Sequence record: MK327944.1
Length of the DNA: 64,000 nucleotides
Origin: Escherichia phage vB_EcoM_G2540-3
Reading direction: 5' to 3' (one strand)
Positions 1-42,727 of the stretch are shown here, in pieces. How positions within the stretch are numbered: position 1 is the first letter of the stretch; every line of letters starts with the position of its first letter. Under the pieces are notes generated by a model, which had not been told where the DNA came from, did not search any database, and saw nothing but the letters and a program-made list of their open reading frames with translations. A program made the position numbers and the translations under genes.

Positions 1-2178
1 TTAGGCCGCAAGGGCCTTCATAGTTTTAGCGATTTGGGAGACTTCATCATCACTTAAAGAGTTGCGATAACCGATGAAGTCGGAAACAATACGGAATTTC
101 TTGGTAAACTCAGCAACCATTTTATCACTGTTTTTTGAAGCATTATTTGATAATACATCAAAAAGATTAGTTACTGTCCAGATGTCATGACCGATGGTAT
201 CTTTTCCACCATTAAAATATACACCGCGCAATGAACTAACTATATTAGCGAGTCGTGTATATTCTTCAGAAACTTCATCTGTACTGAAGTACTTCATCAT
301 AAAATCTAGTTCAGGATACTTGATAATTTTATCAATATATCGTTGAGCTGAACTTGAATAACCTACGTACTTATCATAATCTACATCATCAAAAGCATCT
401 ACATATAAATCACGCAGAGTTTCAAAAATACATTGGCACTGACCGAGTTCTTTTACCTTTTTCTGCAAAAGCGGACGAATAACATAAAACTCATTAATGC
501 CAATAAGATTAGCCATACGAATCAAAATATTCATAGATGGATGACAAAGAGATGTAGTACCATCCATAGAGAAAATATCAGAACGATGCATATACGCTAC
601 ATACCCAGTAATTTCATCTGCTTCTGATGTGAGCGTAAATAATTCCTCTTTTTCCCAGCGCCCGTCTTTAATTTCAAACTTAAATGCTGTAGCAGCTTTA
701 GGACGAGGAGCTTTACTTTTAACTACCTTTGGAATATAGCTTTTAACTAAAGCTTCAATTTCTGACAAATAATGAATGTTAACTTCATCACTTTCAAACA
801 TCGCCATAATATCAGGAAGCAAATCAATCTGCGATTCTACTTCTGGATTAATAAACAGAAGGCGTTCGTTGTGATGAATATTCAAAGTGTTATTAAATTC
901 ACTATCATCTAACGCATGTGCTAATCCACGGACAATATTAACACGATTTTTAATATTATCAATAACGATATTAATTTTTGTTGCATTAATACCAAACAGA
1001 CGATAACTTGATGCAACGGCTGAAGTTTCATGACTTTGCTTAATGCGCTTCAGTCGAGGGTCAAGATTTACTTCATACACAACTCCTGCATTGCATAACT
1101 TACTGTCAGGTTCAAACATGCTCTGCATCTTTTTATATGACAGATTTTTAGTCGTAAATTTGACTGAATTACTAATCATATAATCTCGAGCAGAATACCC
1201 CATCTTCATCAATTCACGATATGTATGACGGGGAGATGTGGATTCTTTAAATCGTTTTACATCTTCATTAAATGCTTTCTCACTGAGTTCTTTAACTCGT
1301 TCAATAATATTTTTACGAGTACGATCATCCAGTGAAAGAGCCTCGCGAGATGGAGCAATATCAAGTGAACCCATTGGAAACTTAATGTAATTCACTTCAT
1401 TGCGAATGCTTAGCCAGTTACGGTCTCTAATAACACCATCGATAGGATAAACAATACCGCCATAGATAGCATATAATCCACCACGATCAGGCCAGTATCT
1501 TTCTGGATTTACACCGTAATAGTCATTAAAATCCGGAAAATAATCAATTTCGCGGTCAAGACCATTAATGATAGCCAAATCTTTGAATGGTCGCATGATA
1601 TAAGAAACTTCATAAGCAAAGTTTCTAAAGTCTTTTTCTTCAACTGGAACTACGATTTCAATACCAGTTTTATCATCTGGACCCATTTCTTTTACGAATG
1701 TAGGTTTAATCTGCGGACCGTCACCATCCATGTAAGCTACATAACCACGAATTTCGCCTTTATGATATGAAGTAATACTAAATGTATCAGTATAACTAAA
1801 CGGAGATTTAGAACCTAAACCAAATCCACCAATGAAATCGTTAGATTCAGCCTTAGATGAACTGAAGTATGAATTATACAACCCAGGAGAATTATCATCA
1901 CCCTGAATATCAAAATCGCTCATACCCGGACCAAAATCTCGACAAACAAATCGCGGATCTAATCGTCCTGGAACTTGTATGATAAATTTTTCAGGATTTC
2001 CATTAAGTGCATGGGCATCAATCATATTAGTAATTAATTCACGGACTACTGCACGAATCTTGTTTGTATACAAATCAGATGACAGAATTTTAAATACTTT
2101 AGGAGATGCTGTGATGCTAAATGCTTTTGATTTAGAACCATTGCCAAGAATTGTTTCTTTTTCAGTGGTGATAATCAT
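1..2178 (-). CDS. rIIA: rIIA protein, 725 aa (rapid-lysis / Rex-exclusion locus; N-terminal GHKL-type ATPase-like region)
   Basis: Complete 725-aa ORF with stop at 1-3; length and position beside rIIA.1 and gene 39 match T4 rIIA; N-box-like motif [11 protein letters not shown]. Confidence 0.85.
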
Positions 2179-4603: not shown

Positions 4604-4971
4604 TTAAATTTAATGGCTTGAAGAAGACTAATAATTCTCAAGCGACTTCCTTCATCTTTAACTGTAAAAGAAAGAGGGTCACCAGATTTCATAGTGATAG
4701 TGCATTCAAAAGCAAAACCTTCGGGAACTTCTTCGAAGAAGTCAAATTCTTCATCATAAATTAGAACATTACTCTGAAAACTGTGAAGAATTTTTCCGTC
4801 ATTTCCAGATGCTGTACTAATCATTGTAACATTATTACCTTTCATATCTTCAACGATAAATTCGCTTGTAGATATTACAGCATTAATAGAACCATTCCTA
4901 TAAATAGCAGAAAATAGATATTTCTTTTCTTCACCTTCGCGAATGCGATATTTCTTACCGATTTTAAACAT
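4600..4971 (-). CDS. hypothetical early protein, 123 aa
   Basis: ORF in the tightly packed minus-strand early array; start overlaps upstream stop. Confidence 0.5.
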   Translation of the reverse strand: MFKIGKKYRIREGEEKKYLFSAIYRNGSINAVISTSEFIVEDMKGNNVTMISTASGNDGKILHSFQSNVLIYDEEFDFFEEVPEGFAFECTITMKSGDPLSFTVKDEGSRLRIISLLQAIKFK

Positions 4972-15165: not shown

Positions 15166-15173
15166 TATTTATA
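15166..15173 (-). promoter_or_regulatory. late promoter (soc)
   Basis: Minus strand TATAAATA about 30 nt before the soc ATG. Confidence 0.7.
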
Positions 15174-16020
15174 AACCATTTTCAAACCTCTTTATCATAT
15201 TTATATAGTTTTCATCGGGATAACCTAGACTAACTGCTAACTTTCTAAAATTGACATATTTAGGTTTGTTGTTATTAATCCATAATTCTCTAAGCTCTTT
15301 TTCATAATTCCATTTAAGTTGATTTCTGCGTGCAGTTTTGCTTAAAGTTTTTCCTTTAGCTTTTAAAGCCTTTTCGGATGACTGTTTTAATTTTTGAATA
15401 TTTAAAACTTCTTCTATAGATAAATTATTTTCCTTTGAATACCTTATGCAAAAATCTTTTACTACGGCTATTAGGCAATTTTTGTGAGTACCTAAAATTT
15501 CTGGATTATTTTCTTCAACTAAAATTCCCCAATATCTTCGGTAGCGAGGCATATCCCTTGAAATCCAGTCATTATACCAAAAATCAAAGTTGGAATACAT
15601 GAAAGATTTTCTTTTGCGAAGAGTATCTTGGTTTATCCATTGCTCACGTTTATCAGCCCATAACTTAATAGTAAAGTCTTTCTCTAAGTCAGAAAGCTTC
15701 TTAAATTGCGAGCTATTTACTGAGGTCATTCTCTGGAATGCATTCAGCAGTCCAAATCTTCCAGTTGAACATAAGAGATAGTGAACATATATGTGTTGAT
15801 ATATTGGGAGATATACTCTATTCCAAGGATATATTTTAAAATCACTATACTCAGGAAATGCGCATTTAGGAAGTATATGATGGGCTTCTGTTTTAGATTT
15901 AATGTTAGTGTTTAACTTATACTTATCTATAATTTTTAAGTACTCATCTAAAAGTTCCCATTGCGGGAACTTTTCTTTAAGAGCAGATTTGAAATTAATA
16001 TCCATTATCTTGACGTTCAA
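15169..16020 (-). CDS. HNH (Mob-type) homing endonuclease, 283 aa
   Basis: EAHHILPK...H motif; C-terminal LRELWINNNKPKYVNFRKLAVSLGYP module shared with four paralogues in the window. Confidence 0.75.
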   Translation of the reverse strand: MNVKIMDINFKSALKEKFPQWELLDEYLKIIDKYKLNTNIKSKTEAHHILPKCAFPEYSDFKIYPWNRVYLPIYQHIYVHYLLCSTGRFGLLNAFQRMTSVNSSQFKKLSDLEKDFTIKLWADKREQWINQDTLRKRKSFMYSNFDFWYNDWISRDMPRYRRYWGILVEENNPEILGTHKNCLIAVVKDFCIRYSKENNLSIEEVLNIQKLKQSSEKALKAKGKTLSKTARRNQLKWNYEKELRELWINNNKPKYVNFRKLAVSLGYPDENYINMIKRFENGL

Positions 16021-16513
16021 AATTATGTTTGTTCTTCAGATAATAAAGTTTAAAGATTTCTTCAGCAGTAAGACCAAGACCTTGGAACATATTCAGAACG
16101 AAATGGAGAATATCAATCATTTCAAATTTAATTTCCAACTGGTCTTGCGGAGACAAATCAGTAATCAGAGTTTCACGACGTTCACCATGCTGCGACTTCC
16201 AAGGTTTCCATACAGCAGATGCATCTTTTTCACCATTACTCATACCACCGAGAGAAGTCAGAAGTTCACGGAATTCATCGTCAATATAATCTTTCTGATT
16301 ACGCAACCAATCAACAACTTCACCGGCAGTAGCCAAGTCATCAGGATGACGATTATATTCAGGTTTATCTTTAGCTAAACGAATCTGCAGAGATTTCTGC
16401 ATGTCAAGCATAACCTGCAGCGGGTCTTTTTCATCACCGAGAATATCCCAATATTCATTTTGAGCTTTATCAGCGCCTTCGATCAGTTGACTACATTCGT
16501 TGAAATGTGGCAT
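15995..16513 (-). CDS. 56: dCTP pyrophosphatase gp56 (MazG-like), 172 aa
   Basis: Size and all-alpha MazG-like sequence; position between soc and gene 61. Confidence 0.8.
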   Translation of the reverse strand: MPHFNECSQLIEGADKAQNEYWDILGDEKDPLQVMLDMQKSLQIRLAKDKPEYNRHPDDLATAGEVVDWLRNQKDYIDDEFRELLTSLGGMSNGEKDASAVWKPWKSQHGERRETLITDLSPQDQLEIKFEMIDILHFVLNMFQGLGLTAEEIFKLYYLKNKHNFERQDNGY

Positions 16514-16514
16514 G

Positions 16515-17165
16515 TTATTTTTCCTTTCTTATGAAGTTTTCTATCATATGTCTATAGCAGATATTAGGATAACCTGCCTTGACAGCTATTTTATTAAATT
16601 TTGTGCGCTTAGGTCTATTATTATAAACCCATAATTCATAAAGCGCATCATAACTATTCCATATTTCTCCTCGCCTAGGATTTGGTAAACCATATCGAGG
16701 CGAATTTTTACCGCTAAATCTTCCTTTTCGGGCTTTACTCATATTAGCCTTGGCTTCATCGGATATAATTTTACCTTTATGAGCTAGACGCATTTTGGCT
16801 TTAGTTTCTTCTGGAGTCTTTTTACCTTTAATCCATGACGGCTTGCCATATCTAGGATTATTTTCACCCGAGAAAAGAACAGAGTTTTGGATTTTAAGGG
16901 TTTCTATTAATCTACTTGTTAATTTAACACCTTTATTATATCGCATTAAATTTACAGCATAATGCAATCCTCTCACATCTGGATATATTTTAGTTAATAA
17001 TCTATGAGCTATAAAATGCTCACGCGCAGTTAACTCAACAAGATTGTTTTTGCCATCTGCTCCTCCCATACATCTAGGAATTATATGATGGCGTTCTTTA
17101 TATCCGCCAAGATGCCGGCATTTAGCTTTTGTAATTAAAGCCGAGTAAATTTTTTGGTAATTCAC
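16515..17165 (-). CDS. HNH (Mob-type) homing endonuclease, 216 aa
   Basis: HHIIPRCMGG...NLVELTAREHFIAH motif; MotA-box middle promoter upstream. Confidence 0.8.
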   Translation of the reverse strand: MNYQKIYSALITKAKCRHLGGYKERHHIIPRCMGGADGKNNLVELTAREHFIAHRLLTKIYPDVRGLHYAVNLMRYNKGVKLTSRLIETLKIQNSVLFSGENNPRYGKPSWIKGKKTPEETKAKMRLAHKGKIISDEAKANMSKARKGRFSGKNSPRYGLPNPRRGEIWNSYDALYELWVYNNRPKRTKFNKIAVKAGYPNICYRHMIENFIRKEK

Positions 17166-17198
17166 ATATATCCTTTCAATTCATGGGTTAGTAGATTA

Positions 17199-17222
17199 AT
17201 TATACAATAAATATATAAAGCA
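17199..17222 (-). promoter_or_regulatory. MotA-box middle promoter (before HNH gene 16515..17165)
   Basis: Minus strand TATTGCTTTAT, 13 nt, TATAAT. Confidence 0.5.
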
Positions 17223-17235
17223 ATAAGGAGGACAT

Positions 17236-17436
17236 ATGGTACAAAAATTAATGGCACTTGTTAATGCCATAAAAGGTAATAAAAAACGTATAGCTTTTAC
17301 TATTTCTGCTATGATAGGAATTTTACTTTGGAATTTTGTTTTATCGCCAGTTGCTATTGCACATGGCGTTAGTATTCCAGTAATTACTCTTGATACATTC
17401 GTAGATTTAGCATTTGCTTTAGTTGGGTTAATTTAA
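17236..17436 (+). CDS. small hydrophobic protein with two predicted transmembrane helices, 66 aa, on the plus strand
   Basis: Perfect SD AAGGAGG 4 nt before ATG; two hydrophobic segments; convergent with gene 61. Confidence 0.5.
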   Translation: MVQKLMALVNAIKGNKKRIAFTISAMIGILLWNFVLSPVAIAHGVSIPVITLDTFVDLAFALVGLI

Positions 17437-18461
17437 ATCTTAGCATATTTAGATAACCGCATTTTAGCCATCAACCCCTGGGCGATATTATTTTTCATAT
17501 ATTCCATAATTTGTTCAGGGGTTGCACCTTCCTTTCTAATCATATCATTAACATCTTTTGATTTCCAGGGAGATTTATCCCAAAACATAACCCTTTCTCC
17601 TGCATCAACTAATTTAGTCATTCGTTTGATAGTGTCAGGATGACGAGGTTCATTATCTAAAACCCACACACGTCTATCTTTAAATGGAACAATTTCTAGG
17701 TCTAATTGACCGCCCGTAATAGCTATACCATTTTCAATAAAAAGTGAATCTATAGGTCCTTCTAGAACATATACATCGCCATCTTTAACTCGTTCAACAC
17801 CATAGATTTTTGTTGCCTCAGGATAAGCTTTGATGGTGATATATTTTTGAGGAGCATCTTTCTTTAATGCACGTCCTTGAAAAGACTCAGCTTTTCCATT
17901 AGCATTATAAATTGGAATAACAAGACGAGGCTCAGGTATTTCCTTTTTATATGTTCCTGGTGCTATACTATTAACTAATTTAGGCCATTCGGTTGTAAAC
18001 CAAAGATATTTCCATTTATCCTTTGGAATACAACGAGCTTTTACGTATTTTATAATTGGATGGTCTTCCGTCAGTTTATCTAATCTAATGCATGACGGAA
18101 GAGATTTAATTATTTTCTTCTCAGGTTGTTTAGGAAGTTCTTTAGGTTTTTCTACTGGACGACTTTTACCTTTTTCTTTTCTTATTTCAAAGATATACTC
18201 ACGATATAAATCAGGTTCAAACTCCTTTAAATATATTCCGATTGGTGCATGATAGTTACAGTTATAACAATGAATATTTCCTTCATTATTATCACCGTAA
18301 TACCATCCACGGGCTTTATTTTGGTCGGTTTTTGAATCTCCACAAACAGGGCATCTAAACCGTAATTTAAAAGTTGAACTATTATTTACTTGTGTGAATT
18401 TAGGTAAATGAGCTAGCGCACGATATGCAAACTCATTATCAATCCAAGGTATTGATGACAT
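17433..18461 (-). CDS. 61: DNA primase gp61, 342 aa
   Basis: Zinc ribbon CPVCGDS...CYNCNYH plus TOPRIM region; 342 aa as in T4. Confidence 0.9.
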   Translation of the reverse strand: MSSIPWIDNEFAYRALAHLPKFTQVNNSSTFKLRFRCPVCGDSKTDQNKARGWYYGDNNEGNIHCYNCNYHAPIGIYLKEFEPDLYREYIFEIRKEKGKSRPVEKPKELPKQPEKKIIKSLPSCIRLDKLTEDHPIIKYVKARCIPKDKWKYLWFTTEWPKLVNSIAPGTYKKEIPEPRLVIPIYNANGKAESFQGRALKKDAPQKYITIKAYPEATKIYGVERVKDGDVYVLEGPIDSLFIENGIAITGGQLDLEIVPFKDRRVWVLDNEPRHPDTIKRMTKLVDAGERVMFWDKSPWKSKDVNDMIRKEGATPEQIMEYMKNNIAQGLMAKMRLSKYAKI

Positions 18462-18650: not shown

Positions 18651-19256
18651 TTAAAAATTTGGGTCATCAATAGAAACTTTTACTTTAAACTGTTTTTCTG
18701 ATGGTAATTCATATCCGCATATTACAATTTTGTGATCAATATCAAAATACACAGAAGCAATATGATTAATGATGTTTTCAGTAAAGTCTAAATCAACCTC
18801 AATATCTTTTTGACCACAACCCAAAGGATAAATAATGCGAGTAATTCGATTATCTTTAACAAAGATTCCACCAATATACTCTGTGCTGCGTTTAAAGTCT
18901 ACGCGCCGCCGAAATGAAAAATATTCAGGCTCTTTATGAGCTCGGCTCATAGGACACAACGAATAACTAGAATAAGAGATGTCAAATCCTACACCTTCAA
19001 TATGAACTAAATTGTCATGATTAAACCAATTATAATCGTACGCCAAGTCCATTAGATTATAATATGTAAAAGGCACCGGATTAACATCACTAGTCACAAG
19101 CACGTAATTAGCAACTGCTATAATTTCGTTGTTTTTAACGAATACAAACCGCGATTGATGCGAATGACCTGGACCTGCGTTTTCACGATTAATGATATAA
19201 CACTGGGCACCTTTATATTTGTACGTGTCTTTGCACTTGTGCATTTGATAAAGCAT
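18651..19256 (-). CDS. hypothetical protein, 201 aa (61.2 position)
   Basis: ORF only; identity not verifiable from sequence. Confidence 0.5.
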   Translation of the reverse strand: MLYQMHKCKDTYKYKGAQCYIINRENAGPGHSHQSRFVFVKNNEIIAVANYVLVTSDVNPVPFTYYNLMDLAYDYNWFNHDNLVHIEGVGFDISYSSYSLCPMSRAHKEPEYFSFRRRVDFKRSTEYIGGIFVKDNRITRIIYPLGCGQKDIEVDLDFTENIINHIASVYFDIDHKIVICGYELPSEKQFKVKVSIDDPNF

Positions 19257-19549
19257 TATTCACCTACCACTTCAGCGATGATATTTTTATTATTGAAGTT
19301 TTTATCGCAATACAGAACGTAATTATACTGCATTACACCACCAGACTTAAGCTGTTTTTGCACTTCAGCTTTCATTTCAGGACGATCACGCTCAACGATA
19401 TTCATAATATCTGCTTCAATCTGAGTTTCAACCTCAGTCTGATCTGCAGTCATAGACCATTCGCACAAATCTTTATCATAACCTGCCATAGCAGGCTGAG
19501 CAGCGCAAGAAGCTAAAGCAAAAATTGCAGCAAAAACAAATTTTTTCAT
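19256..19549 (-). CDS. sp: periplasmic protein, 97 aa, likely Spackle (Sp)
   Basis: Signal peptide MKKFVFAAIFALASCAAQPAMA; 97 aa; position between 61 and 41; RBS GGAG; early promoter at 19578..19607. Confidence 0.55.
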   Translation of the reverse strand: MKKFVFAAIFALASCAAQPAMAGYDKDLCEWSMTADQTEVETQIEADIMNIVERDRPEMKAEVQKQLKSGGVMQYNYVLYCDKNFNNKNIIAEVVGE

Positions 19550-42444: not shown

Positions 42445-42727
42445 GAGAAATAATTCCTTGGTAAGCCCAATAAGGAGGATTAACAGAATCATCACCAGAA
42501 TTTTCTTCAGGGAAATAAACCTGGATAACGAAGCCGGATTCATCAAAGGTAAAATAAACCGTAGGCAGTTCACCTAACAAATCGGCACGAGCATTAATTT
42601 CTTCGAGATCTCGTTCACGTCCAGCCCAAAAACTAGGATTTAGACTACATTCGTAAAAATAATAGTCATTACCGAACATATCAAACCCCTTCCAACTCTC
42701 TACCACATACTGCTCAAAACTAATCAT
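42416..42727 (-). CDS. hypothetical protein, 103 aa
   Basis: ORF only. Confidence 0.45.
   Translation of the reverse strand: MISFEQYVVESWKGFDMFGNDYYFYECSLNPSFWAGRERDLEEINARADLLGELPTVYFTFDESGFVIQVYFPEENSGDDSVNPPYWAYQGIISRGTKLELKE

Follow-up and report, generated by a model that had tools for sequence, protein, structure and literature searches.

T4-type phages already possess a holin (T), antiholins, spanins and lysozyme, and lysis fails in t mutants. The T4 holin T comprises 218 aa and features a large periplasmic domain. Among the exclusion genes of T4, imm and sp are early-acting.

The late promoter of T4 has been published as TATAAATA, spanning positions -13 to -6. Its commonest published variant, in which A(-13) takes the place of T, occurs at 9 of 50 listed T4 late sites, and such variant promoters are used. 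Moreover, late transcription in T4 proceeds in either direction, and relatives of T4 conserve T(-13) poorly. A small open reading frame (ORF) beside the primase gene (gene 61) is annotated as dam.1 in phage T4T, and the locus described here is compared with this gene and with the T4 systems named above.

The DNA analyzed, in the following termed the window, comprises 64,000 nucleotides of Escherichia phage vB_EcoM_G2540-3 (MK327944.1) and is a segment of a Tequatrovirus (T4-type) genome, with positions 16400-17700 sharing 98.8% identity with Yersinia phage fPS-2 and more than 97% with many Escherichia phages. It contains an ORF which, with a probability of about three in four, is the orthologue of T4T dam.1 and a genuine coding gene held tail-to-tail with gene 61 by the Tevenvirinae.

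A reading frame convergent with the primase gene

The ORF and its immediate surroundings feature the following elements:

15995..16513, minus strand: gene 56, dCTPase, the neighbour on the HNH side
16515..17165, minus strand: HNH/NUMOD3 homing endonuclease gene (phrog_655, E=3.7e-59, and NUMOD3), inserted variably between gene 56 and dam.1
17225-17231, plus strand: Shine-Dalgarno (SD) sequence AAGGAGG, followed by ACAT (4 nt) and the ATG at 17236
17236..17436, plus strand: ORF of the dam.1 family (phrog_2024), 66 aa, read from the sequence
17433..17436, both strands: TTAA shared by the convergent stop codons, with the TAA of dam.1 at 17434-17436 and the TAA of gene 61 as the reverse complement of 17433-17435
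17433..18461, minus strand: gene 61, DNA primase, the constant convergent neighbour of dam.1

All neighbours of the ORF are located on the minus strand, and 94.5% of the window lies under minus-strand ORFs of at least 50 aa. Within these 64 kb, it is the sole plus-strand ORF of at least 40 aa that is situated in a gap between minus-strand ORFs and features a strong SD. The original prediction of a 66-aa ORF opposed to all its neighbours, with a perfect SD 4 nt ahead of its ATG and a convergence on the primase gene by overlapping stop codons, was correct in each of these points. Likewise, an SD of the form GGAGG or GGAG is kept in the same place in all relatives compared, and the sharing of TTAA between the two stop codons recurs in T4, JK42, Kosakonia phage 305 and others.

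The product matches the phrog_2024 profile with E=1.9e-30, residues 2-66 being aligned to profile positions 1-65 of 65. A tblastn search with the product retrieved 867 phage records, 692 of them at a coverage of at least 80%, and the retention of synteny among these records marks the ORF as more than a chance reading frame, a matter for which the original prediction had pointed to a homology search. A protein identical to that of the window was deposited from 170 contigs, every time as 'hypothetical protein'. The same position and orientation were found in Tequatrovirus, Mosigvirus, Gaprivervirus, Kanagawavirus, Jiaodavirus and an uncultured T4-like contig; the gene is convergent with gene 61 and downstream of gene 56 in the window, T4, T4T, ELT1, JK42, VR7, MN01, Kosakonia phage 305, KPV15, T2, AR1 and others. 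In T4 itself (NC_000866, AF158101), the same 66-codon ORF with the same SD lies intact and unannotated within the 309-bp 'intergenic' gap between dam and gene 61:

NC_000866 17738..17938, plus strand: T4 dam.1 ORF, missing from the annotation of NC_000866 and AF158101

In the collection searched, no NCBI protein accession corresponds exactly to the T4 protein.

Further searches delimited the family. A profile search of 1.84 billion representatives gave 22 matches only, all of 33-99 aa and without annotation, and a search for related loci with the single window protein gave 5 loci. Pfam and NCBIfam scans of the window protein and 20 family members produced nothing above threshold. A sequence search of the PDB yielded spurious transmembrane matches only and no related solved structure, and Foldseek against BFVD returned family members only. 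Within the window, no paralogue of dam.1 was detected, Spackle being included in the comparison, and the literature searched on dam.1, on Ribo-seq of T4, on unannotated ORFs and on the mapping of late promoters yielded nothing specific.

In Gaprivervirus, a second tandem copy is located between the first copy and gene 61, namely in MN01 (locus 1701..1901) and P479 (locus 1401..1601) and probably also in VR7 (about 1700-1898 of its locus). This copy shares about 20% identity with the first, features its own SD and shows a dN/dS of 0.13 between MN01 and P479. Klebsiella phages carry the same 'b' type as this second copy.

The content of the slot between gene 56 and dam.1 differs from phage to phage. 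It is empty in AR1 and JK42 and harbours dam in T4, dam together with another ORF in T2, G3F9 and OE5505, the HNH gene in the window and both HNH and dam in ELT1, while the HNH gene at the position found in the window is absent from T4, AR1 and JK42. Judged by these gene orders, dam.1 is the constant resident beside gene 61, and dam and HNH are variable inserts. The original prediction, according to which the ORF and the HNH gene together fill the dam slot of T4, therefore does not hold, as T4 features dam and the ORF, and ELT1 features HNH, dam and the ORF. A role of the ORF as a replacement of dam was likewise rejected, T4 carrying both genes and AR1 and JK42 carrying the ORF with neither dam nor HNH. 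Nevertheless, the accompanying remark that the window lacks a DPPY-motif methyltransferase was confirmed, since tblastn with T4 Dam revealed no Dam homologue anywhere in the 64-kb window (best E-value 0.78). The pattern (D/N/S)PP(Y/F/W) occurs a single time in window ORFs of at least 100 aa, as NPPY at 42481.

Two HNH genes, at 15169..16020 and 16515..17165 (both minus strand), flank gene 56 in the window; both belong to phrog_655 and are alike at their C-terminal ends. The T4 counterparts at these two sites are the GIY-YIG gene segF (first) and dam (second), and the gene 56 region looks like a hotspot of mobile endonucleases.

The ORF is under purifying selection. Nei-Gojobori estimates of dN/dS from informative pairs, which are based on few substitutions, range from 0.20 to 0.33 within Tequatrovirus and from 0.31 to 0.37 among Mosigvirus and Gaprivervirus. 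The reading frame is kept even at dS above 1.2, and OE5505 as well as NRG-P0074 feature an in-frame deletion of 3 codons. Invariant residues across subfamilies with just 20-30% identity are W32, N33 and P38, and nearly invariant ones are G44, P48 and G64; with its length within 60-70 aa, the window protein shows the motif W-N-x4-P...G...P...(D/E) in the residues W32, N33, P38, G44, P48 and D53. Additionally, variable sites among nine Tequatrovirus sequences are distributed as 10/3/12 over the three codon positions, which is a weak signal (chi-square p about 0.07). Each of these lines is modest alone, and their combination renders a non-coding reading unlikely.

Such a reading would regard the ORF as untranslated, being either the 3' UTR or terminator of gene 61 or the first part of an antisense RNA, made late, which lowers primase expression, and is considered very improbable. 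It can draw on a signal in the 5' end of the ORF that was called a terminator in a related phage:

17241..17270, minus strand: weak hairpin with a T-run, inside codons 2-12 of dam.1, an annotated terminator in fPS-2

It is possible that this hairpin ends gene 61 transcripts; moreover, no plus-strand terminator is present between the ORF and gene 61, and the transcription of both strands at different times has been published for some sites of T4. However, the hairpin is weak and, as it is absent outside Tequatrovirus, cannot explain the conservation of the ORF, so that a minus-strand terminator was rejected as the cause of this conservation. Frame, length of 60-70 aa, SD and residue pattern outlast saturating synonymous divergence as well as the in-frame deletions, the Gaprivervirus tandem duplicate comes with an SD of its own, and family members exist in prophages where no primase gene adjoins. 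The Rfam scan matched no family, and the RNA fold of the leader was not significant (z=-1.1). All of this argues for the translated gene.

Predicted late expression from a box nested in a middle promoter

Two promoter elements, one on each strand, are located upstream of the ORF:

17206..17213, plus strand: predicted late promoter (gp55-dependent) with the box AATAAATA, which differs from TATAAATA by A(-13) and precedes the ATG by 22 nt
17199..17225, minus strand: middle promoter of the MotA type, serving the HNH gene and gene 56, with the box tatTGCTTtA at 17225..17216, an 11-nt spacer and the -10 element TATAAT at 17204..17199

The promoter-like box on the plus strand is conserved. ATAAATA was found 12-22 nt ahead of the ATG in all 20 loci compared, whose flanks represent at least 7 unrelated sequence types. 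A perfect TATAAATA is present in a single one of these 20 loci, and the box of T4 itself is GATAAATA, a rarer kind of deviation from TATAAATA. In the window, the plus strand has 5 copies of ATAAATA and the minus strand 6, compared with 16.7 and 25.3 copies expected from a first-order Markov model; among the 21 permutations of this composition, ATAAATA ranks as the rarest. On the minus strand, 5 of the 6 copies are located upstream of four ATGs, belonging to e (two copies, 63727 and 63714), soc, gene 49 and a 70-aa ORF, with TATAAATA ahead of soc and e and AATAAATA ahead of gene 49, which encodes endonuclease VII. On the plus strand, the dam.1 copy is the one out of five that is followed by an SD and an ORF. 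The conservation of the box in 20/20 loci, together with the depletion of the 7-mer elsewhere in the window, suggests that dam.1 is probably expressed late from a gp55-dependent promoter. Among the roles listed in the original prediction, a late-expressed peptide is accordingly the one backed by the sequence, namely by this conserved gp55-type box.

The remaining plus-strand copies of ATAAATA are located at 4899 (a perfect TATAAATA), 13713, 18828 and 61659, none of them with an SD and ORF behind. Going by the motif, they are candidates for late antisense promoters inside early genes.

Expression of dam.1 could proceed as follows. Replication would load gp45 clamps, and RNA polymerase with gp55 and gp33 would start at AATAAATA (17206-17213), giving rightward transcription from about 17219, counter to the early and middle direction. 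The transcript would carry a 17-nt leader with the strong SD, from which the 66-aa product would be translated. Past the ORF, the plus strand features only a weak 5-bp terminator-like stem (18059..18072). As no convincing terminator follows dam.1, its late RNA should read on antisense into gene 61, where it should collide or pair with the primase mRNA.

The divergent promoter, at 17225..17199 on the minus strand, conforms to the MotA pattern, in which (a/t)3TGCTT(t/c)A precedes a -10 element TAnnnT by about 12 bp. Yersinia phage fPS-2 carries the annotation 'predicted middle promoter' at this site, and AR1, which has no HNH gene, features the identical promoter sequence directly ahead of gene 56. 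A dual use of this DNA had been proposed, with the SD as the reverse complement of the MotA box. The minus strand does feature a good MotA-type promoter sequence, but the SD is not the reverse complement of its box, the overlap of the two being 1 nt (17225). The part with a true dual use is the spacer of the middle promoter, since it is the reverse complement of the plus-strand late box.

A 31-codon, GTG-initiated ORF (17162..17257, minus strand) coincides in part with the promoter region and with the beginning of dam.1. Phage G3F9 has a similar ORF annotated as a CDS; being little conserved between T4 and the window, this frame is probably spurious.

Predicted topology and candidate roles

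The 18 N-terminal residues of the dam.1 protein carry a net charge of +5, residues 19-42 are uncharged and hydrophobic, and residues 43-66 carry a net charge of -2. Kyte-Doolittle hydropathy gives two maxima, near residues 28-33 and 54-57, and AlphaFold2 with an alignment of 25 sequences (mean pLDDT 79) models helices at 2-12, 16-42 and 52-63. The claim of two hydrophobic helices thus agrees with the hydropathy maxima but only partly with the model, in which one helix is long (16-42) and the other short (52-63). Since the C-terminal segment features E, H, R or K in other family members and the AlphaFold2 helix is short, an amphipathic tail is likelier there than a second transmembrane (TM) span. 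The favoured model is therefore a protein with the N-terminus inside, one TM helix (about 19-42) and a short acidic amphipathic C-terminal helix in the periplasm. The product would enter the inner membrane with its basic N-terminus (+5) remaining cytoplasmic, W32, N33 and P38 lying within the TM helix and the acidic helix 52-63 sitting at the periplasmic face. The original prediction of a small membrane-protein gene on the opposite strand is supported by these predictions.

With regard to function, dam.1 may encode an accessory late envelope or lysis-timing protein that acts in the membrane alongside the holin network. This is a guess and more apt to fail than to hold, and it is ranked ahead of a function in exclusion or host interaction, which in turn is ranked ahead of a holin or toxin proper. 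The guess derives from guilt by association, as the only distant relatives of the protein are located at the tail/lysis end of E. coli-type prophages.

The most distant profile matches, which still match phrog_2024, reside outside T4-like phages in siphovirus-type prophages with a lambda-J-like tail tip, and by their gene order these distant members occupy the tail/lysis end of E. coli prophages. They are always accompanied by two soluble proteins of about 180 and 106 aa. One prophage operon comprises the family member, a 180-aa protein, a 109-aa protein and a lysozyme; other members often have a T4-lysozyme-type endolysin gene no more than about 2 kb away, while some prophages have the lysozyme gene at a place not adjacent to the member. 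One such prophage is the following:

E. coli EC28, NZ_CP049101.1 1879769-1911511: degraded prophage in yegD, roughly 32 kb, in which the terminase and portal genes are split and a serine recombinase is encoded

The last gene of this prophage encodes a 70-aa phrog_2024 member, and the region is common to about 25 complete E. coli genomes. Around its endolysin gene, the TM proteins are a DUF2730 protein and the family member only; a 63-aa two-TM protein with a charged C-terminus, encoded at the other prophage end, is the better-looking holin candidate.

A further record, PQ671644.1 ('Escherichia phage DCP80', 141 kb), is labelled Gaprivervirus and features a lambda-J-type tail, endonuclease VII and endolysin genes beside a T4-type motA; it looks like a chimeric assembly.

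By extension, phrog_2024 as a whole could represent a minimal one-TM lysis-control component of Tevenvirinae and E. coli prophages, acting as a holin partner, an antiholin or a membrane-priming factor, which we regard as improbable. In the window, dam.1 is located 46 kb from e (near 63.7 kb) and thus shows no endolysin linkage, and homologues of the prophage partners of about 180 and 106 aa were not found in the window. The lysis guess is weakened by this distance and by these missing partners, as well as by the lysis proteins already present in T4-type phages, the absence of a holin-type tail, the prophages with a non-adjacent lysozyme and the better-looking holin candidate of EC28.

A holin, pinholin or membrane toxin proper, which would oligomerize and depolarize or permeabilize the inner membrane, is highly unlikely. 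At least one TM domain, as expected of holins, is predicted by hydropathy and by the AlphaFold2 helix 16-42. The copy in OE5505 bears the name 'Holin' in UniProt, but this is a depositor name, and RefSeq calls the same protein hypothetical. PF11351 (GTA_holin_3TM) gave sub-threshold matches in the same register in 4/20 members (E 0.03-0.1), yet these scores amount to 13-15 bits against a cut-off of 24.8, and the window protein matches no Pfam or NCBIfam model at all. In hhalign comparisons with the ICP1 TeaA family, the probability was 0.1-0.2%; TeaA itself misses PF11351 by hmmscan, so that this comparison is not a fair proxy for PF11351. Although some prophage members head an operon that ends in a soluble-type lysozyme, the charged C-terminal tail of holins is missing: the window protein ends in ...DLAFALVGLI, with a net charge of -2 and no basic tail, and the same applies across the family. 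Moreover, dam.1 cannot be a sufficient holin in T4, given the failure of t mutants to lyse.

Superinfection exclusion or host interaction would do without any part in lysis. In this case, dam.1 would be a 'moron'-like membrane protein that alters the envelope against other phages or host defence, which appears rather unlikely. The predicted small inner-membrane protein would suit such a function, the E. coli prophage member is the last gene before the attachment site, a typical moron position, and in T4-type phages the gene lies in a hypervariable region rich in mobile elements, near sp (Spackle). However, no PADLOC defence model matched the protein or 20 family members, no similarity was detected to any window ORF, Spackle included, and the conserved promoter is of the late type, unlike those of the early-acting imm and sp. 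In prophages, moreover, the gene overlaps the stop codon of the late-operon gene ahead of it, with no promoter region of its own.

Significance and comparison with known systems

For now, dam.1 counts as a conserved hypothetical gene of the ordinary kind. It is not novel, since hundreds of recorded genomes contain it and T4T carries it under the name dam.1. What is new here comprises the conserved late box, the nesting of the promoters, the predicted antisense run into gene 61, the Gaprivervirus paralogue and the distant prophage relatives. This conserved gene is still missing from the RefSeq and GenBank records of T4, the reference phage, and T4 transcriptome, proteome and knockout studies that depend on this annotation would probably overlook it. 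Besides, dam.1 is predicted to be a clean case of a late gene directed against the early direction, with its box nested in the spacer of a divergent MotA-dependent promoter. Moreover, knockout and expression tests of such a small, conserved, probably late membrane protein would be inexpensive and well defined. An involvement in lysis timing or exclusion, if there is one, would add a new component to a textbook system; if the lysis-control reading were true, the lysis and lysis-inhibition circuit of T4 would have an undiscovered late member encoded opposite the primase.

Compared with known systems, dam.1 of T4T (ADJ39749.1) is the same gene, with 94% protein identity to the window and equal position, strand and SD. 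The two differ in the upstream neighbour, which is dam in T4T and the HNH endonuclease gene in the window, and the upstream sequence of the window is of the AR1 type with AATAAATA, whereas GATAAATA is present in the T4-type copy. Holins such as T of T4, TeaA of ICP1 and the GTA_holin_3TM family are small phage inner-membrane proteins like the predicted product of dam.1, which is probably also made late; the similarity to them is not significant, however, and dam.1 shows no linkage to lysis genes in T4-type genomes. Imm and Sp of T4 are likewise small and envelope-targeted and are encoded in the same early-region neighbourhood (Spackle at 19256..19549, minus strand), but they share no sequence similarity with dam.1, which is located on the opposite strand and features a late-type promoter in place of early or middle ones. 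With regard to expression, soc and gene 49, two T4 late genes in the early region, resemble dam.1: a TATAAATA-type box precedes the ATG by 13-31 nt, the leader is short and the SD is strong. Both, however, are encoded on the strand of their early neighbours, whereas dam.1 occupies the opposite strand and its transcript is predicted to be antisense to gene 61.
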